Part shown: positions 11,786 through 20,709 of the stretch, piece after piece
How positions within the stretch are numbered: position 1 is the stretch's first letter
Layout: the number at the start of each line of letters is the position of its first letter
NCBI GenBank assembly: GCA_020059745.1
Contig: JAGVBK010000004.1
Span: 306,511-370,510, forward strand
Direction: 5' to 3'
Length of the DNA: 64,000 nucleotides
DNA from: Candidatus Shapirobacteria bacterium
GTDB lineage: Bacteria > Patescibacteriota > Microgenomatia > UM-FILTER-40-11
Notes under the pieces: generated by a model
What the model was told of the DNA's origin: nothing
Databases searched by the model: none
What the model saw: the letters and a program-made list of their open reading frames with translations, nothing else
Made by a program: the position numbers and the translations under genes

Positions 11786-12364
11786 TTGCCCTCAAAAATC
11801 CTCCGTTCGAATCTCTACTTTGGTGTGTTTATAGGATATAATTATCCATATATGGTTAAAAAATTCTCTGTAGGGTACGTTGTTATTATTGGAGCCCTTC
11901 TTGTTCTCGGAATTGCTGGTTTTTTCTGGCTTAACAAGCCAAATGAAGAAAATTTTAAGGCTCCGGGAAGAGATTGGAATTCACCTAAAAAGGTTGAGGA
12001 TTACTTTATTGAAAGATTAAGGATGACGCCCCAGGAAGCCTCTGAAATCAGATCAAAGCCAGGAGTTGACGGAACAGTTGATTTAAGAATAAGCACCAAT
12101 GTTACCCTGGAAGGACTTGTCGGAAATCTTTATTATTACGGTTTTGTACGAGATGAAGACACTCTCCGGTACGCTTTAGAAAATACTCAAGATACTACTC
12201 CGAGTGAAAATGCAATAAAAGCTGGCAAAAGCGGAACGATTGATACGAATGCTGAATACAGAATTTCTGAAGATATGACAACCTGGGAGATTGCAGATAT
12301 TTTATTAAATAAGCCATCCGGTCATTTTAGTTATGATGAGTACGGCTATTTCTTTATGCCTTAG
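11786..12364 (+). CDS. Hypothetical membrane-anchored protein, possibly a YceG/MltG-like N-terminal domain
   Basis: TM helix (VVIIGALLVLGIAGFFWL) followed by ~140 aa. Weak resemblance to the MltG N-terminal region. The real start is probably the internal ATG (MVKKFS…). Confidence 0.3.
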   Translation: MPSKILRSNLYFGVFIGYNYPYMVKKFSVGYVVIIGALLVLGIAGFFWLNKPNEENFKAPGRDWNSPKKVEDYFIERLRMTPQEASEIRSKPGVDGTVDLRISTNVTLEGLVGNLYYYGFVRDEDTLRYALENTQDTTPSENAIKAGKSGTIDTNAEYRISEDMTTWEIADILLNKPSGHFSYDEYGYFFMP

Positions 12365-12893
12365 TCTTTTTGGAATTTTCTGGGGGTTCGTTTCCAGAAA
12401 ATCTTTTAACATAGTCGATCCATGTTTTTTTAGATGGAACTATTTCTTTGTGGAGCATGCCAATAGTTTCCATTCCGCACATAAATAGCTGCCCTAAGGC
12501 CTCATCGTAAGAGTGGTTTTTAAAATCTGAATTTAACGGTTCTTTAAAGTTTAACCAATTATGAACTACTGAATTTCTCTCTTTTCGGTATTTGTGTAGT
12601 TGTAATTTCAGGTTTTTACTAATAACTTTTGCCTTGAATAAATAATCTATAACAGATGCAAAAGATCCCTCCTTGGGGTTTTTAAGAATCTTGTTATATT
12701 TTTCTGGCTGTTTTGAAACATTGCAATAAATAAAATAGCCTAAAAAAGTTAGCCCCTCAATTAATGACACTAACTCAAAGTTAGCTCCAGTCTTTGACTC
12801 GAGAAAAAGTTTTCTAAATGTTGTAGGAGTATAGTCTCTATAAGGGACGCCTCCTTTATCATTAATTTTTATCGAAAAGTTATATTGATTCAT
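12354..12893 (-). CDS. HEPN-like protein (Rx4H motif)
   Basis: 179-aa ORF. Contains RNSVVH (R-x4-H), the signature of HEPN RNase domains, near a predicted helical core. Divergent from the R-M/OLD operon. Confidence 0.4.
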   Translation of the reverse strand: MNQYNFSIKINDKGGVPYRDYTPTTFRKLFLESKTGANFELVSLIEGLTFLGYFIYCNVSKQPEKYNKILKNPKEGSFASVIDYLFKAKVISKNLKLQLHKYRKERNSVVHNWLNFKEPLNSDFKNHSYDEALGQLFMCGMETIGMLHKEIVPSKKTWIDYVKRFSGNEPPENSKKTKA

Positions 12894-13169
12894 AATATAA
12901 GGAAATTATATATCAAACGCTTTATTCGAGAGGAGCTCCGCAGACCTCTTTATTATGAATGTAAAGTTGTTTCCCGAACACTTTAGTGATTTCTCTTTTT
13001 TCTTCATCCGTGCCGTTTCTTAGAATGTGTTGGGCAAATATTAATAGCTAGAGACAAGAAGGATTTAAGGGACTGGTATTTAAGTTGAGATTTTTTTCTG
13101 AATTTCAGCGAGATTTTTAACTTCTATGTTCTTCCAATTTTGCCTCAAAAGTGCTAGGATTTAAGTCAT

Positions 13170-14873
13170 ATGGCACAAGATTATAGCAATTGGACCAAAG
13201 AGGATCTAATTGAAGAAATGAAGCGCTTAAGAAAGCGTAAAAAATACGGTTTAGTTTGGGAAGATAAGCCAGAAGATGTAGTTGAGCAATGCAAAAAAGA
13301 ACTTCCAGTTCTAGAAGAAGTTAAAGATAAAGAAATTTCCACAGATTCAGATAAACCAGTCAATTTGTTAATAGAGGGCGACAACTTCCATGCGCTTTCT
13401 GTATTGAACTACACTCACAAAAATAAAATTGATCTCATTTATATAGATCCTCCTTATAATACGGGCGCAAGAGATTGGAAGTACAACAACGACTATGTCG
13501 ACATAAACGATGTTTTTCGACACAGTAAATGGATTTCAATGATGAGCAATAGGCTCAAAATTGCAAAAAATCTACTGAAAAGAGATGGTGTTTTAATCTG
13601 CACAATTGATAAAAATGAAAATGCAACATTACTCCTATTACTTGAGGAACTTTTTCCTGCATATGACGTAACAACAGTTGTTATAGAACATAATCCAAAG
13701 GGTTTACCTAGTAGCAATTTTTCCTATTCACACGAATACGCTCACTTTGTTATTCCCAAAGGGTTGTCAGTTATTGGTAAAAACCCTGCGACGAAAGAAG
13801 ATACAAGAAATTTAAGAAGGGCGGGGCGAGCATCATATAGAACAGAACGTCCTACTATGTTTTATCCAATATATATTAAAGATGGGAAAGTGAAGCGGAT
13901 CGGCCCCATTCCTGAAGCATCATTCCATCCTGGGAAACGATCAATTTTGAAAGATAATGGAGAAATCGAGATTTGGCCGATTGATGATAGAGGAAAAGAA
14001 AGAAGATGGCATTTCGGGTTAGATTCAATTGAAGATCATATTGAGAGAATAGGAGTAAAAGAGAAAAACGGCGACTATCAACTCTATGTAACCGCTGTTC
14101 CTGCTAGATATAAGACTGTTTGGACTGGTGGAGATTTGGATGCTGGTAAATATGGCACATCACTTGTGAAAGAGATTATTGGGAAAGAATTTCCTTTCCC
14201 AAAGTCACTATATGCAACCGCAAAATGTTTAGAAACTGTTGTATACAAAAAAGAAAATGCAACAATTTTAGATTTTTTTGCAGGATCAGGAACTACTGGC
14301 CATGCAGTCATGATGATGAATCAACAGTATGGAGGGAGCAGAAATTTTATTTTATGCACAAATAATGAACTTAACGGCCAAGAAAAGGAATTAAGGGAAA
14401 AAGGATTGACTGAGCAAGAAATTCAGGAGTATGGAATTTGTCGTGCAGTTACGTACCCCAGAATAAGGAAAGTTATTGAGGGTTATAACAATACTAAGGG
14501 AATAAAAGCTAATCTTAAATATTTTATAACCTCTTTTGTTCCAGCAGATCCAACAGATAAAAATAAGATCGAATTAACCAAAAAAGCAACAGAGATGTTA
14601 TGTATTAAAGAAGATACCTTTGAGGAAGCTGAATTCAAAGAAAAGTTTAAGATATTTAGAAATAAAAACCACTATACGGGAATTATTTTCGATCATCAGG
14701 CTATAGACGACTTCAAAAGGGCCATTAAAGATATTGATGGCAGGTTTAGTGTATATGTATTCTCATTGGGTGATGATACTTTTGATGACGAGTTCGCAGA
14801 CATTAAAAATAAAGTTAAGTTATCGCCTATTCCTGAAGCAATATTGAGGGTTTATAGAAGAATATTTAAGTAA
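13170..14873 (+). CDS. mod: Type III restriction-modification system methyltransferase (Mod); beta-class N6-adenine/N4-cytosine MTase
   Basis: Motif IV DPPY (IYIDPPYNTG) precedes motif I (FFAGSGTTGHAV), i.e. the beta-class order typical of Type III Mod. 567 aa with a central variable (TRD) region. Followed by a Res gene. Confidence 0.85.
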   Translation: MAQDYSNWTKEDLIEEMKRLRKRKKYGLVWEDKPEDVVEQCKKELPVLEEVKDKEISTDSDKPVNLLIEGDNFHALSVLNYTHKNKIDLIYIDPPYNTGARDWKYNNDYVDINDVFRHSKWISMMSNRLKIAKNLLKRDGVLICTIDKNENATLLLLLEELFPAYDVTTVVIEHNPKGLPSSNFSYSHEYAHFVIPKGLSVIGKNPATKEDTRNLRRAGRASYRTERPTMFYPIYIKDGKVKRIGPIPEASFHPGKRSILKDNGEIEIWPIDDRGKERRWHFGLDSIEDHIERIGVKEKNGDYQLYVTAVPARYKTVWTGGDLDAGKYGTSLVKEIIGKEFPFPKSLYATAKCLETVVYKKENATILDFFAGSGTTGHAVMMMNQQYGGSRNFILCTNNELNGQEKELREKGLTEQEIQEYGICRAVTYPRIRKVIEGYNNTKGIKANLKYFITSFVPADPTDKNKIELTKKATEMLCIKEDTFEEAEFKEKFKIFRNKNHYTGIIFDHQAIDDFKRAIKDIDGRFSVYVFSLGDDTFDDEFADIKNKVKLSPIPEAILRVYRRIFK

Positions 14874-14879
14874 ATTTTT

Positions 14880-15521
14880 ATGAAAAAGAAAAAACAAACG
14901 ATAAGCAAGGAATTGAGGATGCCTCATATATATCGAGAGGATTTGGAAAAGATAGAAAATCTTATTTTAAATGAACTAAAGCCGAGAGAGTATAAAATTG
15001 AAACCAATGAATATGAGTATGAAAAGGTAGAACAATTGCAAAAAGACTTGGGAACAGCGGTAGACTTGCATGTCCAAACTTATACTCCCTACTTGAGTAT
15101 AGATTTTAATAAAAATAGTGCCAGAGTATATTCTGGCGATGACGATTTAAAAACCATGGGAGCATTTGATCAAATATTCTCAATTCTGTCTAAGAAAGAG
15201 AGAAGGGTTTTGTATTATCTATCGAAAGTTTCCGTATGGGTTGCTCCAATATTATTTTTTGCTCCTATCCGTGCGCTTGCGGAAATTGACAAAGTCGATA
15301 ACCCGAAACTTTGGGTAGTACTCGGTGTTGTACTAGTAAGCGCACTCTGGTGGGTTATCGGTTTTTACTCATCTCTTTATAAATTCTCAATAATCGATTT
15401 CACTTATTTAAAAGAGAAGCCAAACTTTATTGTACGCAATAAGGATCAAATTATTCTCGTGGTTATTGGAGCAATAATAGGGGCTATTGCAACAATTGTT
15501 TTTAATAAGATACTTTTTTAA
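14880..15521 (+). CDS. Hypothetical membrane protein inserted between mod and res
   Basis: 213-aa ORF. Hydrophilic N-terminal ~110 aa, then 2-3 predicted TM helices (VWVAPILFFAPI…, LWVVLGVVLVSALWWVIGF…, IILVVIGAIIGAIATIVF). Lies 6 bp after mod and 3 bp before res. Confidence 0.5.
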   Translation: MKKKKQTISKELRMPHIYREDLEKIENLILNELKPREYKIETNEYEYEKVEQLQKDLGTAVDLHVQTYTPYLSIDFNKNSARVYSGDDDLKTMGAFDQIFSILSKKERRVLYYLSKVSVWVAPILFFAPIRALAEIDKVDNPKLWVVLGVVLVSALWWVIGFYSSLYKFSIIDFTYLKEKPNFIVRNKDQIILVVIGAIIGAIATIVFNKILF

Positions 15522-15524
15522 GCT

Positions 15525-17750
15525 ATGCAATTAAAAGACTACCAACACACAGCTATTAAAAAACTATTAGCCAGAAGCAAAGAGCTTTTGGCCCAAAGTG
15601 GCGAGAAAAAAATCATTTTCAAAGCCCCTACAGGATCAGGCAAGACAATCATGATGGCCGAGTTTTTGAAACAGATGGTTGATGACTCTGAGATAAAAAC
15701 TCCGCTGTCTTTTATCTGGACGGCTCCCCGAAAACTACATACTCAAAGCAAGGAAAAGTTGGTTAGGTATTTTGACACTACCAGGGCTATCGAGTGTTCA
15801 GATTTTGAGGAATTAACTGATAAGCAGATCGGTGAGAATGAGATTTTATTTTTGAATTGGGAGAGTATCAACAAAAAAGACAAAAATACCATTGTCAAAG
15901 AGAATGAGAAAGAGTTTTATTTAGGCAAAATTATCGAAAACACCAAAGACGAGGACCGAGAGGTTGTGTTGGTTATTGATGAAAGTCACCATCACGCCAC
16001 TAGTGAAATATCCCACAGCCTTATAACGGATATTGGGCCGAGATTAACCATAGAAGTGTCAGCAACACCAGTTATTCAAGATCCCGATGAGATTGTATCC
16101 GTGCCACTTGAGGATGTCAAGATGGAGGGAATGATAAAGAAATCTGTCTTACTAAACCCGAATTTCAAAAATGTTCTTTCTGGCGACAATGTTACCTCTG
16201 CTCTAGCCGACGGGACCGACATGATGGTGCTTGAGGAAGCATTGAAGAAACGTACAGAATTGGTAAAAGCATATCAAGATGCGGGGATTAACGTTAACCC
16301 ATTACTGCTCATTCAACTTCCAGATAGAAAAACACAGCAAGAGGATTTAATAAAAGACGAGATCATCCGACACCTAAAAGACAAACACGGAATGACGACT
16401 GAAAACGGACGTCTGGCAATATACCTATCTGAGGAAAAAGAAAATCTTGAGAACATATCGAAAAATGATCAGGAAACCGAAGTGCTTATTTTCAAACAAG
16501 CGATTGCTCTGGGTTGGGATTGCCCTCGTGCGCAGATATTAGTGCTATTTAGGGATTGGAAGAGTTTAACATTCTCAGTGCAAACTGTTGGCCGAATTAT
16601 GCGCATGCCCGAGCCAGACATGGGTCACTATGAAAACGAAATTCTCAATTTTGGATATGTCTACACTAATTTAACCAATATCGAAATTAAAGAAGATATG
16701 GCTAGAAGCTATGTCACCATCTACACCAGCAAGAGGATTGATAGCTACAAACCATTGGAACTTACCTCTGTGTATCGTTTGCGACATCGCGAGAAAACAC
16801 GCTTAAGTCCGTTGTTTATTCGTCTATTCCTAGAGGAAGCCAAAGAGTACAAGCTAGAAGAAAAAATTGAAACCAAAGGGCAAAAACTAGAGTTGACGTT
16901 TATATCTGATTATCAGGCTGGTGGTGTGGATCAATTAATTAATGCAGAAATCCGGGGAGAAGCCAAGATTGATACGGAAAACGAAACTGATCTGCAAAAG
17001 CTGTACGATTTCTTCGTTAGAAACAACCTCACCCCTTTTTATCCAGAGGATCGTTCTATTGGTAGGGTTAAAGAGGCCATCTACTACTTTTTCAAAGAAC
17101 AGTTAAAGATGGATTACGGCAAGTATTTTGCCGAGATCATTAATATTGTTCTTAGCGAGAAAAACAGGCAACATTTCGTCAATGTCATTGATAAAACTAA
17201 AGAGCGGTATATTGCCGAAACCCAAAAGCGAGAGGCTAAACTACAACAATTATCGGATTGGGAGGTGCCACAACAGCTCAACTACGGCGGGGATTATGTT
17301 GCTCTTAAAGTCGGCCGATCGGTAATGACTCCTTTTTATTATGACAACCGCTGGAAAACAGAGGAAGCATTTATCAAGTTTTTAGAACAATCAAACCAGA
17401 TTGAATGGTGGTTTAAGAATGGAGATAGAGATTCAACATTCTTTGCCGTGCCGTATATGGAAAATGGCAATCAAAATCCTTTTTATGTTGACTTTATTGT
17501 TAAGTTTAAGAACGGCACGATAGGGTTATATGACACCAAAGGTGGCAGAACAATTAAGGATGCTAAAGAGAAAAGTGATGGGTTACAAGATTACATTGGG
17601 GCACAAAATAAAAAGGGTAAAAAAATGGTTGGCGGGATTGTGGCGAATACTAACTCAAGGGACTACTCGGGTAGATGGGTTTGTTACAAGGGCCAGAGCA
17701 GCGATCTTGTGCTAGATAATTTCTCTAACTGGGAAACGTTGGAATTATAA
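15525..17750 (+). CDS. res: Type III restriction enzyme Res subunit (SF2 helicase-like ATPase + C-terminal endonuclease)
   Basis: Walker A (KAPTGSGKT) and a DEAH-like box (LVIDESHHH). C-terminal nuclease-like motif (…VKFKNGTIGLYDTKGG…). 741 aa. Confidence 0.85.
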   Translation: MQLKDYQHTAIKKLLARSKELLAQSGEKKIIFKAPTGSGKTIMMAEFLKQMVDDSEIKTPLSFIWTAPRKLHTQSKEKLVRYFDTTRAIECSDFEELTDKQIGENEILFLNWESINKKDKNTIVKENEKEFYLGKIIENTKDEDREVVLVIDESHHHATSEISHSLITDIGPRLTIEVSATPVIQDPDEIVSVPLEDVKMEGMIKKSVLLNPNFKNVLSGDNVTSALADGTDMMVLEEALKKRTELVKAYQDAGINVNPLLLIQLPDRKTQQEDLIKDEIIRHLKDKHGMTTENGRLAIYLSEEKENLENISKNDQETEVLIFKQAIALGWDCPRAQILVLFRDWKSLTFSVQTVGRIMRMPEPDMGHYENEILNFGYVYTNLTNIEIKEDMARSYVTIYTSKRIDSYKPLELTSVYRLRHREKTRLSPLFIRLFLEEAKEYKLEEKIETKGQKLELTFISDYQAGGVDQLINAEIRGEAKIDTENETDLQKLYDFFVRNNLTPFYPEDRSIGRVKEAIYYFFKEQLKMDYGKYFAEIINIVLSEKNRQHFVNVIDKTKERYIAETQKREAKLQQLSDWEVPQQLNYGGDYVALKVGRSVMTPFYYDNRWKTEEAFIKFLEQSNQIEWWFKNGDRDSTFFAVPYMENGNQNPFYVDFIVKFKNGTIGLYDTKGGRTIKDAKEKSDGLQDYIGAQNKKGKKMVGGIVANTNSRDYSGRWVCYKGQSSDLVLDNFSNWETLEL

Positions 17751-17756
17751 GAATCT

Positions 17757-19559
17757 ATGAAAATCAATAAACTAATTCTGGACAATTTTAGAAATTTCCA
17801 GGATAAGATTGCTGTTGATTTTAATAGCCTTACAGTTGTTATTGGGAAAAACGATTTAGGTAAATCTACTATTCTCGAGGCATTGGATATATTTATCAAT
17901 GAAGGCTCCTCTTTAGTCAAGCTTGATAAAGATGACGCGTGTAAAAGATCTCAATCAGATGAATTTTCGATAGGCGTTGTTTTTTCAGAGTATCCTGAAA
18001 GAGTTGATATTGACGAAGGCAACCAAACTTCTTTGGAAGATGAGTATCTATTAAACCGAGACAGTTTATTGGAAATTCATAAGCATTATAAAAATGGAAA
18101 ATGTACTGGTGTTTATATTCACGCATTGCACCCTACTACTGAAGAAGCAAAAGATCTATTACTAAAAAAGCAGCAAGAGTTAAAGAAAATCGTTGAAGAT
18201 AATGGCTACGCTTGTGACAACAAAACAAAAAATGCCTCTTTACGTAAAGTCATACGAGAAGGTGTTGGAGATTTAAAGTTAGAAGAAATTGATATACCTG
18301 TTAACGAAGAAGATGCTAAAAGGATATGGGGAAAACTACAAACTTATTTGCCAGTATATGCATTGTTCCAGTCCGATAGAGCAAATAAAGATGAGGATCG
18401 AGAAGTCCAAGATCCGATGAAATTAGCGATAAAAGAAATATTACAAAAGGAAGATTTGCAGGAAAAACTAAGAGGTATAGCTAATGAAGTTGAAGAGATT
18501 TCTAAAGAGATTGCACACAAGACGCTTGAAAAATTGGCCGAAATGAACCCTGATATTGCTAGAGAGCTTAAACCAGTTATTCCTCCATGCTCTGACTTAA
18601 AATGGGATTCTGTTTTTAAGAATATTGAGATATCAAGCGATGATGGTGTGCCGCTAAATAAACGTGGAAGCGGTGTTAGAAGGTTAGTTTTGTTAAACTT
18701 TTTTAGAGCAAGAGCGGAAGAACAAAGGAATCTAGACTCAAAATCAAATGTAGTGTATGCAATCGAGGAGCCAGAAACATCACAACACCCCAACCATCAA
18801 AAGATACTTATCAAAGCACTGAAAGATTTGGCCGATCAAGAAGGAAGACAAATTTTTATAACGACACATAGTCCTTCGTTAGTTCAATTGTTACCAAAAG
18901 ATTGTGTGCGCTTGTTATGCAAGAAAGACGGAAATCTTGAAATTATTAGTGGAGACTTGGCAATTTCAGACATAATAGACGATTTGGGTGTTCTTCCAAT
19001 AATCGGTAAGGTTGCAGTCTTTGTTGAAGGAGAAACTGACAGAGAGTTTCTGCTAAATATCGGTGCAATAAACGAGTTAAAACAAATTATTGATATTAGT
19101 AAGATCTCAATAATACCGCTTGGTGGAAGCACGCTTGAAAGATGGATAAATAGAAACTATTTAGACGGATCAAATATTGTTGAATTTCATCTATATGACA
19201 AAGACAGTGATGAAAAGTACAAAGAAGCAGTAAGCAAGATCAACGAAAGAGCCGACAACTCAAAAGGGCAGTTAACGAAATCGCTAGAAATTGAAAATTA
19301 TATTCATCCCTCGCTCGTTGAAGGATGTGATAGGCTTTCTAGTATTTCATGCACTTCGATAAAAAGCCAGTGGAAGAATAAAGACATACCTCAATTTGTC
19401 TCGCAAAAAACTGGGATTGACGAATTGGTAGTAAAAGAAATTCTTTGTTGCTCTCTATCAAAGAAGATGAATAAGCAATTGATGGAGGAGATTAACATTT
19501 GGGATGAGGTTGAAGGTTGGTTTGAAAGTGTTAAGAGTATGACTGAGCAAACAAGATAA
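17757..19559 (+). CDS. OLD-family ATP-dependent endonuclease (ABC-type ATPase + Toprim)
   Basis: Walker A GKNDLGKST. OLD-type Walker B/D-loop (VVYAIEEPETSQHP). C-terminal Toprim (VFVEGETDREFL … YDKDSDEKY, giving E…DxD). 600 aa. Confidence 0.85.
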   Translation: MKINKLILDNFRNFQDKIAVDFNSLTVVIGKNDLGKSTILEALDIFINEGSSLVKLDKDDACKRSQSDEFSIGVVFSEYPERVDIDEGNQTSLEDEYLLNRDSLLEIHKHYKNGKCTGVYIHALHPTTEEAKDLLLKKQQELKKIVEDNGYACDNKTKNASLRKVIREGVGDLKLEEIDIPVNEEDAKRIWGKLQTYLPVYALFQSDRANKDEDREVQDPMKLAIKEILQKEDLQEKLRGIANEVEEISKEIAHKTLEKLAEMNPDIARELKPVIPPCSDLKWDSVFKNIEISSDDGVPLNKRGSGVRRLVLLNFFRARAEEQRNLDSKSNVVYAIEEPETSQHPNHQKILIKALKDLADQEGRQIFITTHSPSLVQLLPKDCVRLLCKKDGNLEIISGDLAISDIIDDLGVLPIIGKVAVFVEGETDREFLLNIGAINELKQIIDISKISIIPLGGSTLERWINRNYLDGSNIVEFHLYDKDSDEKYKEAVSKINERADNSKGQLTKSLEIENYIHPSLVEGCDRLSSISCTSIKSQWKNKDIPQFVSQKTGIDELVVKEILCCSLSKKMNKQLMEEINIWDEVEGWFESVKSMTEQTR

Positions 19560-19562
19560 CTT

Positions 19563-20330
19563 ATGAGTCAATATTACAATCCAAACAGAACAAGAAATAT
19601 TTATGATCCAAAATCTAGCGAGTTGTTTCGCCTGAGTCGTGGAAAGATAGACAATTTCATTACGTGCCCACGTTGTTTTTATCTTGACCGGAAACTGGGA
19701 ATTGCTCAGCCTCCCGGATATCCTTTTTCTCTTAATTCCGCTGTCGATAAACTTCTCAAAAAAGAACTTGATATTCACCGAGCAAAGGGGACACCACATC
19801 CTTTAATGAAAACTTACGGTGTCGATGCAATTCCTTTAACTCACGAAAAAATTGAAGAATGGCGGGATTCGCTAAGGGGAGGGATTACTTTCAGGATAGA
19901 AGGAAGTAATGTCGTGGTAACCGGCGGAGTTGATGATATGTGGATTAATCCCCAGAGTGAATATATTGTTGTTGACTATAAAGCAACTTCCAAAGAAGAG
20001 GAAGTAACTTTAGATGCCGACTGGCAGATTGGCTATAAAAGGCAAATGGAAATTTACCAGTGGCTTTTCAGAAAGAACGGTTTTGCGGTTTCTTCGACTG
20101 GTTATTTTGTTTATTGCAATGGCAATACAGATAAGGAAGCCTTTGATGGAAAGTTGGAATTTGATATTAAGATTATTCCCTATTTAGGAGATGATTCTTG
20201 GGTTGAAAATACCATTCATGATGCAATTGATTGCTTAAACAGTAATGAGATTCCGGCTCCTGGGGCAGATTGTGATTACTGCCGGTATGTAGAAGCGGTT
20301 AGAAAAATTGATGAGGTTGCTTATGCTTAA
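19563..20330 (+). CDS. Cas4-like PD-(D/E)xK nuclease with a 4-Cys (Fe-S) cluster
   Basis: N-terminal CPRCFYL motif (as in Cas4/AddB), D…(IVVDYK) PD-(D/E)xK core, a QMEIYQWL (QxxxY) motif and a C-terminal CDYC pair. 255 aa. Begins 3 bp after the OLD gene. Confidence 0.65.
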   Translation: MSQYYNPNRTRNIYDPKSSELFRLSRGKIDNFITCPRCFYLDRKLGIAQPPGYPFSLNSAVDKLLKKELDIHRAKGTPHPLMKTYGVDAIPLTHEKIEEWRDSLRGGITFRIEGSNVVVTGGVDDMWINPQSEYIVVDYKATSKEEEVTLDADWQIGYKRQMEIYQWLFRKNGFAVSSTGYFVYCNGNTDKEAFDGKLEFDIKIIPYLGDDSWVENTIHDAIDCLNSNEIPAPGADCDYCRYVEAVRKIDEVAYA

Positions 20331-20709
20331 AAAAATTGAAACTGCCGATGAGTTTATTAAGAGGAAAACTGATGAGTTTTCTAAAAATAAATTAATTGAA
20401 ATAAAAGATATCGGTCGAAGCGGAAAACATTTTTTAGCTCGTGAAGCTTGGACTTTTATGCCACAAGGGAATTTGGGTGATAAAGTGTTTGTTATCGAAA
20501 GGTTTAGAAAAGAATCAACTGAAGGAAAAATTGCGTACACAGATTCCTGGAAGAAAGGAGATATTGAGTACCGCATCGGATATTTCATTATTGGGAAAAT
20601 TGGTAAAGCGGCTGGAAGATGGGTCTGGGGACAATATTGCCCTTTGATTCCTCATGAAGATTTAGATAAATTATTATCCAAAGCAAGGCAAGAAGGAACA
20701 CTTCTTTAA
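20323..20709 (+). CDS. Hypothetical small protein, last gene of the R-M/OLD/Cas4-like operon
   Basis: ~129-aa ORF overlapping the Cas4-like stop by 8 bp (ATG at 20323; the ORF track used an upstream TTG). No recognisable motif. Confidence 0.45.
   Translation: MLKKIETADEFIKRKTDEFSKNKLIEIKDIGRSGKHFLAREAWTFMPQGNLGDKVFVIERFRKESTEGKIAYTDSWKKGDIEYRIGYFIIGKIGKAAGRWVWGQYCPLIPHEDLDKLLSKARQEGTLL

Follow-up and report, generated by a model that had tools for sequence, protein, structure and literature searches.

The mod-X-res locus

The stretch of DNA considered here (64,000 nucleotides of contig JAGVBK010000004.1 from a Candidatus Shapirobacteria bacterium, called the window below) carries a Type III restriction-modification (R-M) operon in which a gene for a small membrane protein, designated X, lies between the genes for the modification and restriction enzymes. 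The modification gene, mod (13170..14873, + strand), encodes a beta-class N6-adenine DNA methyltransferase of 567 aa; DPPY and FAGSGTT motifs are readable in its translation, and in family scans the product matches PADLOC MTase_III (2.9e-80) and Pfam N6_N4_Mtase (5e-23). A direct reading then gives a 6-bp spacer, ATTTTT (14874..14879, + strand), followed by X itself (14880..15521, + strand), an ATG-started open reading frame (ORF) of 213 aa whose product, a membrane protein of an unnamed family, is listed in GenBank as a 'hypothetical protein' (RJR23833.1), and by a second spacer of 3 bp (15522-15524). These coordinates bear out the initial annotation of this DNA, which had pointed to a 213-aa ORF lying between Type III mod and res genes with gaps of 6 bp and 3 bp.

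The gene that follows, res (15525..17750, + strand; 741 aa; GenBank RJR23832.1), specifies a Type III-like restriction subunit composed of a superfamily 2 (SF2) helicase, with Pfam matches to ResIII (1.2e-20), DEAD, and Helicase_C, and a C-terminal PD-(D/E)XK-type nuclease. Because its score against PADLOC REase_III is just 1.5e-16, this Res is assigned to a divergent subfamily. Its C-terminal region matches the NCBIfam BPTD_3080 restriction endonuclease (1.7e-11), and the nuclease motif FYVDF...YDTKGG (D...DTK) is conserved in an alignment with homologs. Thus, the host operon has the genes of a Type III system, namely a Mod with its motifs and, downstream on the same strand, a Res with both helicase and nuclease; as in canonical systems of the EcoP15I type, mod precedes res and the catalytic motifs are intact.

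Public gene calls disagree about where X begins: one gives a protein of 200 aa from Met14 (14919), and the other (RJR23833.1) gives the 213-aa protein from Met1 (14880). The Met1 start is supported, because an ATG-AAA-AAR start located 4-9 nt past the mod stop codon is conserved across the other loci checked, Met at position 14 is missing in distant members of the family, and the modeled fold opens with a strand made up of residues 8-13. Met14 was considered as the true start and rejected, since a start there would discard these residues and since the Shine-Dalgarno-like AAGGA/GAGG that precedes it in the window is missing from the other loci. (It should be noted that no Shine-Dalgarno motif was found before 14880; none is clear at any gene start checked in the window, so its absence at X is uninformative.)

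Anatomy of the X protein

X is a real gene, and its product is a small inner-membrane protein. The protein begins with a basic tail (residues 1-13, 14880..14918, + strand; MKKKKQTISKELR) that has a mean net charge of +3.9 in 44 aligned family members and in which M1, Q6, and K10 are invariant among close homologs. Residues 8-13 of this tail constitute strand 1 of the domain that follows, and the strand is present in both AlphaFold2 (AF2) models, full-length and domain-only. The core of the domain, an acidic alpha/beta domain that is predicted to be cytoplasmic, spans residues 14-97 (14919..15170, + strand); when strand 1 and a helix at residues 90-105 are included, the order of its elements is beta-alpha-beta4-alpha (AF2 domain-only model, pLDDT 85, pTM 0.76). 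The core has a net charge of -7.5 +/- 2.2 and an isoelectric point (pI) of 4.2-5.0 in 44/44 members, and DNA binding by it was rejected because it is acidic in all of them. In Foldseek comparisons of the full-length and N-domain models, a resemblance to the TBP-like fold recurs but is too weak to support a fold assignment (E>=0.005, TM-score <=0.57).

The domain leads into a basic juxtamembrane helix (residues 98-113, 15171..15218, + strand) with a conserved KxERK motif, of which E107 and R108 are invariant in alignments A1 and A3; this segment has 5.0 K/R versus 1.5 D/E per sequence in the 44 members. In the full-length AF2 model an unbroken helix extends over residues 90-135 and so runs into the first of three predicted transmembrane (TM) helices, TM1 (residues about 116-133, 15225..15278, + strand; Kyte-Doolittle 1.3-1.65). 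TM2 (residues about 144-161, 15309..15362, + strand; Kyte-Doolittle up to 2.4) is followed by a conserved loop, again predicted to be cytoplasmic (residues 166-191, 15375..15452, + strand; K/R 5.8 versus D/E 2.7 in the 44 members), which ends in the signature NFxxRNKDQI, with RNKDQI at 15435-15452. In this loop F169, S170, I172, F183, R186, N187, K188, D189, Q190, and I191 are invariant in A1, and F183 and D189 are conserved at >=90% in the 44-member alignment. TM3 (residues 192-210, 15453..15509, + strand; Kyte-Doolittle up to 2.7) bears a stripe of small residues, A198/G201/T205, positions that are small in 91%, 91%, and 95% of the 44 members, respectively.

Hydropathy analysis of the window X and the 44 members indicates that the three hydrophobic segments are conserved across the family. 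Lys and Arg are enriched at residues 98-113 and 166-190 and are sparse in the 134-143 loop, a distribution that, by the positive-inside rule, predicts an N-in/C-out topology with three TM helices. The predicted exterior exposure of X is then limited to a loop of ~10 residues and to the 3-4 C-terminal residues. The best-conserved features of the protein are D21, P70, G94, the ERK before TM1, the FSxIxF...NFxxRNKDQI loop, and the small residues of TM3; no catalytic motif is apparent in X. The soluble N-terminus of ~110 aa proposed in the initial annotation is therefore retained (at about 113 aa), and where that annotation had left the number of TM helices at 2-3, three are predicted, not two.

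A protein family new to the databases

A word-indexed search found just five non-self relatives of X. Their alignment seeded an exhaustive hidden Markov model (HMM) search, which returned 1,758 clusters (50% identity) at E<=1e-3 and 940 at E<=1e-10, nearly all of them 200-230 aa in length and aligned end to end. In a codon comparison among loci with the gene order mod-X-res, the ratio of nonsynonymous to synonymous substitution (omega) is close to 0.2 in the N-domain and to 0.5 in the TM part; since these values are well below 1, X is under purifying selection. A chance ORF or a decayed remnant, either of which would have undone the initial annotation, could appeal to the lack of a Shine-Dalgarno-like motif before 14880 and to the internal start picked by one automated call. 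Given full-length homologs in 1,758 clusters, the low omega, a confident domain model, and a conserved start context, we regard such an origin as having next to no probability.

The remote-homology search that had been proposed for X thus uncovered a large family, yet not a named one. No Pfam, NCBIfam, or PADLOC model matched X beyond a chance-level Cas10 fragment (PADLOC/Pfam cut-off E<=0.01), and no P-loop or nuclease family matched it in the same three collections. When PHROGs are included, the best leftovers are PHROG 23485, whose function is unknown (E 0.008), and DUF4118 (E 0.026), which were treated as noise. A profile search of PDB sequences with the X family gave nothing below E 2.8, and Foldseek searches of PDB and BFVD with the full-length and N-domain models gave no match at E<=1e-3. 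Scanning the 44 relatives singly produced only scattered one-member matches, such as LydA holin (0.0047) and AbiZ (0.0059). NCBIfam NF045993 (MAG0130/MAG3770 membrane protein), which from its locus tags we take to be a Mycoplasma family, matches 2/44 relatives (best E 2.6e-7) and does not match the window X; it may provide a remote link to a family that is named but uncharacterized, and no description of the MAG0130/MAG3770 family was found in the literature. Nor was any description found there of an R-M-embedded membrane protein of the X kind. No X relatives were matched in plasmid and phage records (tblastn) or in IMG/VR (pattern scan), so these sets give no sign that X is carried by phages or plasmids. 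Judged by sequence comparison, then, the X family is new to Pfam, NCBIfam, PADLOC, and PDB, and it belongs to no known R-M-embedded accessory family.

Recurrence of X in R-M operons

About 70 loci containing X relatives were gathered through exact-protein look-ups, a scan of one genome per species, and a metagenome scan, and the neighbors at each locus were classed by phmmer against annotated seeds together with Pfam. (The 44-sequence alignment is too diverse for locus searching, and a narrower 17-sequence alignment was used.) The order found in the window, mod-X-res, recurs in at least ten further metagenomic lineages (L019, L022/24, L025, L027, L029, L032/33, L037, L042, L069, and L074-76), so the survey of other Type III loci for intervening ORFs that the initial annotation had recommended reveals a family-level arrangement and not a one-off. 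The three proteins are of uniform size (Mod 540-610 aa, X 209-216 aa, Res 739-745 aa) and are 43-53% (Mod, over long alignments), 37-45% (X), and 48-63% (Res) identical to those in the window; Mod and Res are orthologous, and the central region of Mod is hypervariable among orthologs (7-40% identity). Wherever complete trio loci were measured, gaps of 1-9 bp flank X, with mod-X spacers of 4-9 bp. In two of the lineages the Lys of the Res nuclease motif is replaced by His (FDTHG in L022:5299-5724 and FDPHG in L027:5267-5692; DTKGG in the window and the other orthologs), which could mean either that the catalytic site is a variant one or that the nuclease has been inactivated.

X is also embedded in operons of other R-M types. 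In Type I loci it lies between the genes for HsdS and HsdR (L001, L008/18, L009, and L020; 43-54% identical to the window X) or, in L063, within the order HsdR, HsdS, X, HsdM (32%). IIG-like operons have X either between an HSDR_N_2-N6_Mtase-Eco57I enzyme gene and genes for an S-like protein and a PDDEXK_1 protein (L002/10/28; 41%) or ahead of genes for an 820-aa enzyme and an S-like protein (L035/36/38/41; 36-38%). In MmeI-type operons the order is MmeI enzyme, helix-turn-helix (HTH) protein, X, and PDDEXK_1 (L047/48; 32%). Among Type II loci, X follows an EcoRI methylase gene and precedes RhuM...GmrSD (L016/17; 55%), follows an N6_N4 methylase gene (L030 and L043; 36-39%), or stands third after the genes for a BsaWI endonuclease and a methylase (L046; 35%). 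Among about 45 distinct loci that were informative, X is embedded in an R-M operon in about 27; where X shares >=35% identity with the window protein, the figure is about 25 of about 31. Because the peptide patterns used to collect the loci came from the R-M-embedded branch, this fraction is biased upward for the whole family. Typically X directly follows the gene for the methyltransferase or the specificity subunit; where the operon is of Type I or Type III, the restriction gene comes next. A large branch of the X family thus behaves as an accessory cassette that has been repeatedly built into R-M operons of all types in bacteria of the candidate phyla radiation (CPR).

This breadth bears on two ideas about function. 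The initial annotation had suggested that X might regulate Res assembly, a role that is disfavored because relatives 41-55% identical accompany Type I, IIG-like, and Type II enzymes, none of which has subunits related to Res. A broader proposal is that X serves as a membrane tether or adaptor, anchoring the R-M enzymes or the incoming or cleaved DNA, or restraining restriction until methylation is established. CPR cells take up DNA, and a tether would cause restriction to act at the site where foreign DNA enters. One preferred slot for X, immediately downstream of the methyltransferase or specificity gene, is shared across types, and the coupling of X between the M/S and R genes of Type I and Type III operons (gaps of -4 to +9 bp) suits stoichiometric co-production; the large cytoplasmic domain and the RNKDQI loop would be free for binding, and exterior exposure is minimal. 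However, the would-be partners (Mod, HsdS/HsdM, IIG fusions, EcoRI-type methylases, and beta-class Type II methylases) lack a common surface even though the X proteins that accompany them are 41-55% identical. In addition, the acidic core (pI 4.2-5.0) makes direct DNA binding unlikely, there are pairs of this Mod-Res family that lack X, and X is also found solitary and far from R-M genes. On balance, we judge a tether to be unlikely.

Other genes are associated with these loci as well. A LexA-type repressor gene (LexA_DNA_bind plus Peptidase_S24; L002:5499-6116) is directly upstream of an X-bearing IIG-like operon, and another is near a stand-alone X (L031:425-1084), which hints at SOS-linked control at some X loci. 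Bro-N, DUF3800, and NYN genes are carried between hsdM and hsdS in Type I operons of CPR bacteria (L008:5943-6788, L009:3100-3843, and L001:5701-6255), RhuM follows X in L016:2254-3285, and a Bro-N/X pair is present outside any R-M operon in L011 and L039. The R-M operons of CPR bacteria seem to act as landing sites for accessory genes in general.

An accessory gene apparently exchanged between operons

Canonical Type III mod and res genes abut or overlap, whereas the CPR branch holds X between them. Searching with the window Res (tblastn) identified the closest X-less Mod-Res pairs on Enterococcus and Mammaliicoccus plasmids (L070 and L071), in both of which the two genes overlap by 4 bp. The Mod of the E. 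faecium plasmid (561 aa) is 34% identical to that of the window, and the plasmid Res (742 aa) is 27% identical end to end and has the same nuclease motif. Since these Firmicutes plasmid pairs do without X, X is dispensable for this Mod-Res enzyme family; it is an accessory gene, not a core R-M subunit.

The history of X is also partly its own. In a rough neighbor-joining tree, R-M-embedded X proteins constitute a derived clade, within which the companions of the window X come from Type I and EcoRI-methylase operons (49-55% identity) and not from other Type III operons (37-45%). When the trio loci L032 and L025 are compared, the C-terminus of Mod and the N-terminus of Res are 85-100% identical per 40-aa window, whereas X is 12-57% identical; at similar synonymous divergence (dS, 1.0-1.5), omega is 0.07 and 0.035 in the flanks versus 0.20 and 0.49 in X. 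This contrast at similar dS indicates that X evolves several-fold (3-10x) faster than the neighboring enzymes. Between L032 and L037, the dS of X is lower than the dS of the flanks. The discordant divergence of X and its flanks in these two comparisons, together with the grouping in the tree, argues for a partly independent history and suggests that X has been swapped between operons as a cassette. As a separate observation, the G+C content of the window is 38%, and it is 33-35% across 12000-15500 (which contains a 179-aa ORF, mod, and X) versus 38-42% in the region of gltX and in res; such a drop could mean that the operon's 5' part was acquired horizontally or is mosaic.

Distant, stand-alone relatives

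Relatives at 24-33% identity are mostly solitary and lie in unrelated, non-recurring contexts. Their neighbors include a LAGLIDADG gene, an integrase gene, a DUF433/DUF5615 pair (presumably a toxin-antitoxin pair), and a Rep_1 gene. In the last case (L072:704-2920, and also L073), an X member of 25% identity begins 12 bp after the Rep_1 rolling-circle replication gene and is followed by an Xre-like HTH gene; this 3.9-kb contig was considered as a complete plasmid, but no terminal overlap was found.

Other distant members are found beside the housekeeping genes glyA, gltX, radA/ispD, htpG, and panC, some of them tightly spaced, and clamp-loader genes also adjoin basal or distant members. Such neighbors would be expected if X were a passenger, that is, a housekeeping-type membrane protein that tends to land or to be retained in the permissive, mobile, and constitutively expressed R-M operons of compact CPR genomes. 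The acceptance of Bro-N, DUF3800, and NYN cargo by CPR Type I operons and the absence of any homology between X and defense families fit this idea equally. Yet no recurrent housekeeping partner was seen among the distant relatives examined, and the lack of conserved synteny in members outside R-M operons is atypical of a housekeeping operon member. Furthermore, X recurs in at least six architecturally distinct R-M types, chance cargo would not be expected to persist through the divergence of Res to 46-63% identity in at least ten mod-X-res lineages with its coupling kept, and the 64-kb window has no X paralog. We therefore consider a passenger improbable. A related possibility, that X is a resident gene at the side of gltX and has merely been flanked by R-M genes, was rejected: the X that lies ~4 kb from gltX in L012 is only 33% identical to the window X, versus 50-55% for R-M-embedded X proteins from other contigs, and the proximity of X to gltX in both the window and L012 is taken as coincidence.

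The occurrence of X in many R-M types and also alone would fit a non-abortive membrane defense, such as a superinfection-exclusion-like protein or another blocker of an entry or membrane step, that acts autonomously and is simply co-transferred and co-expressed with R-M genes. Entry blockers that are small membrane proteins are already known. There is also a precedent for single-gene defense restricted to Patescibacteria in LdgA, which is lambda-specific and non-abortive, has an unknown fold, and was obtained by functional selection (PMC12366544). LdgA and DdgA, which emerged from a functional metagenomic selection, protect E. coli from phage (Rodriguez-Rodriguez et al. 2025; PMC12366544). Compared by description only, LdgA and DdgA are like X in being CPR-restricted and in having no recognizable homology or fold. 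However, the exterior exposure of X is minimal and its conserved features are all on the cytoplasmic side, and an entry blocker is in our estimation slightly less probable still than a passenger.

The probable expression unit and the defense-like genes downstream

The tightly packed block that starts with mod continues beyond res. After a gap of 6 bp lies a gene for an OLD/AriA-like ABC-type ATPase of 600 aa (17757..19559, + strand), which matches Pfam AAA_15 (1.2e-82) and PADLOC AriA (2.1e-70, residues 1-376), Old (2.9e-25), and GajA (2.4e-24); a C-terminal OLD-like_TOPRIM signal is weak and below threshold, and no separate AriB (DUF4435/TOPRIM nuclease) is present. The ATPase gene lies in the same operon and is probably a separate defense module. 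Another 3 bp downstream is a gene for a Cas4-like PD-(D/E)XK nuclease of 255 aa (19563..20330, + strand; Pfam PDDEXK_1 3.5e-12, cas4 models about 1e-8), which is the final clear gene of the block. The ATPase and the Cas4-like nuclease may constitute a PARIS/OLD-type second system within the R-M transcription unit. At another locus, L023, an OLD-like ATPase gene lies between X and res.

The successive gaps from mod to the Cas4-like gene (13170-20330) are 6, 3, 6, and 3 bp. In a consensus scan, no terminator-like site was found on the + strand of this interval, and the sole promoter-like site on that strand falls within the ATPase gene, with none between mod and res. The simplest reading of this layout is that the block from mod to the Cas4-like gene would be co-transcribed and translationally coupled. 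The initial annotation had held that the position of X forces its co-expression with the R-M enzymes; read from the sequence, co-expression is plausible, given the shared strand, the gaps of 1-9 bp in complete trios, and the lack of any + strand promoter-like or terminator-like site from mod to res. The block is bordered by two unannotated ORFs without family assignment: one of 179 aa, divergent from mod (12354-12893, - strand), has a weak match to PADLOC PDC-S06 (E 2e-4), and one of 133 aa (20308-20709, + strand) overlaps the end of the Cas4-like gene.

A possible membrane-acting second layer of defense

Taken together, these observations lead us to favor, tentatively and by analogy with PrrC and PARIS, the reading that X is a co-expressed, membrane-acting accessory layer of defense that follows the logic of an R-M guardian. 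As a conserved membrane protein so often built into R-M operons, X is a strong candidate for an accessory component of defense that is new. From architecture and genomic association only, we infer that the most plausible class for X is that of an abortive-infection effector or an exclusion sensor, both of which had been put forward in the initial annotation. The defense role, the trigger, oligomerization, and membrane damage that we infer would be connected as follows. The cytoplasmic domain would sense a generic sign of failed or subverted restriction, or another cue of infection; the TM bundle, packed via the small-residue face of TM3, would then oligomerize and compromise the membrane; and a cell in which infection goes on in spite of restriction would stop growing or die (abortive infection). 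We count in favor of such a role the recurrence of the mod-X-res trio, the independence of X from R-M type, its accessory status, the slot that it shares with prrC, its fast evolution, and the contexts of its distant relatives, whose mobile-type neighbors are taken as accessory-genome behavior. Further points are the combination of a sensor-like domain with a TM bundle that has a small-xxx-small face on TM3 and lacks an enzymatic motif, and the defense neighborhood.

The prrC gene sits between hsdS and hsdR, and the slot of X (specificity or modification gene, then X, then restriction gene) is the same, a likeness of context and not of ancestry. The prrC gene is embedded in a Type IC R-M locus, and PrrC and PARIS have been termed 'RM guardian systems' (PMC12707154). 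PrrC is triggered when restriction is inhibited (PMC12707154, PMC1484252), and other R-M 'accessory genes hypothesized to function as toxins' are on record (PMC12707154). Like X, PrrC (EcoprrI; RloC is a looser relative) is specified by an accessory gene inside an R-M operon that is co-expressed (plausibly so for X) and is not needed for restriction; in the case of X, a location within an R-M locus is seen in the window, in at least ten Type III loci, and in five Type I loci. The proteins themselves differ. PrrC is a soluble ABC-ATPase joined to a tRNA anticodon nuclease, whereas X has three TM helices, neither of these domains, no NTPase or nuclease motif, and no homology to PrrC. Furthermore, prrC is tied to Type I loci, whereas X is found in Types I, II, IIG, and III. 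The role proposed for X is also like that of PARIS, a back-up layer that answers the subversion of R-M, and an AriA-like AAA_15 gene follows res in the same operon; X resembles neither AriA nor AriB, and PARIS acts via a TOPRIM tRNA nuclease and not at the membrane (PMC12707154). In layout and inferred action X is closer to the TM effectors of CBASS and Pycsar, SLATT, RexB, AbiZ-type, and holin-like proteins, which combine a cytoplasmic domain with a small TM bundle; the conserved small-residue face of TM3 would likewise suit oligomerization. X differs from these in that none of the Pfam or PADLOC models for such families matches it or its 44 relatives beyond isolated chance-level hits, and X operons have no signaling enzyme that would supply a ligand. 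An accessory gene in an R-M operon is therefore of a known kind, and the X protein family itself is new.

Several points weigh against the guardian reading. X has no sequence or fold similarity to a pore-former, a holin, SLATT, an Abi protein, or any PADLOC model, and the latent toxicity that is required is unaccompanied by any evident antitoxin-like partner. The independence of X from R-M type argues for a generic trigger or for autonomy, and against physical silencing of the PrrC style. The housekeeping neighbors of distant members and the upward bias of the R-M fraction noted above count on the same side, and the raised omega of the TM part could reflect low constraint on lipid-facing residues.

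The independence from R-M type also underlies a more general version of the sensor-effector idea, in which X would be a universal R-M companion: a sensor-effector or adaptor anchored in the membrane, which would detect something shared by all R-M types and turn it into a membrane event. Candidate cues would be the loss of S-adenosylmethionine, DNA-mimic anti-restriction proteins captured or mimicked by the acidic domain, and DNA ends generated by restriction. We give this proposal a small share of our confidence, comparable to that of the tether.

Implications

The bacteria of the CPR, or Patescibacteria, account for a large part of the diversity of bacteria and rely on R-M systems; to our knowledge, they are mostly without CRISPR, and we know of little else about their immunity. 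The X family is invisible to current defense annotation (PADLOC, Pfam, and NCBIfam). The mod-X-res segment of about 4.6 kb offers a compact three-gene model, and because nature provides this Mod-Res family both with and without X, the role of X is directly testable. If X is a membrane tether, the old question of membrane-organized restriction would be revived. If instead X is a guardian or abortive effector, as we tentatively favor, the principle established by PrrC and PARIS would extend to an effector at the membrane that works with any type of R-M system; and if X proves to be a universal companion of R-M systems, it would represent the main form of back-up immunity known in CPR bacteria.

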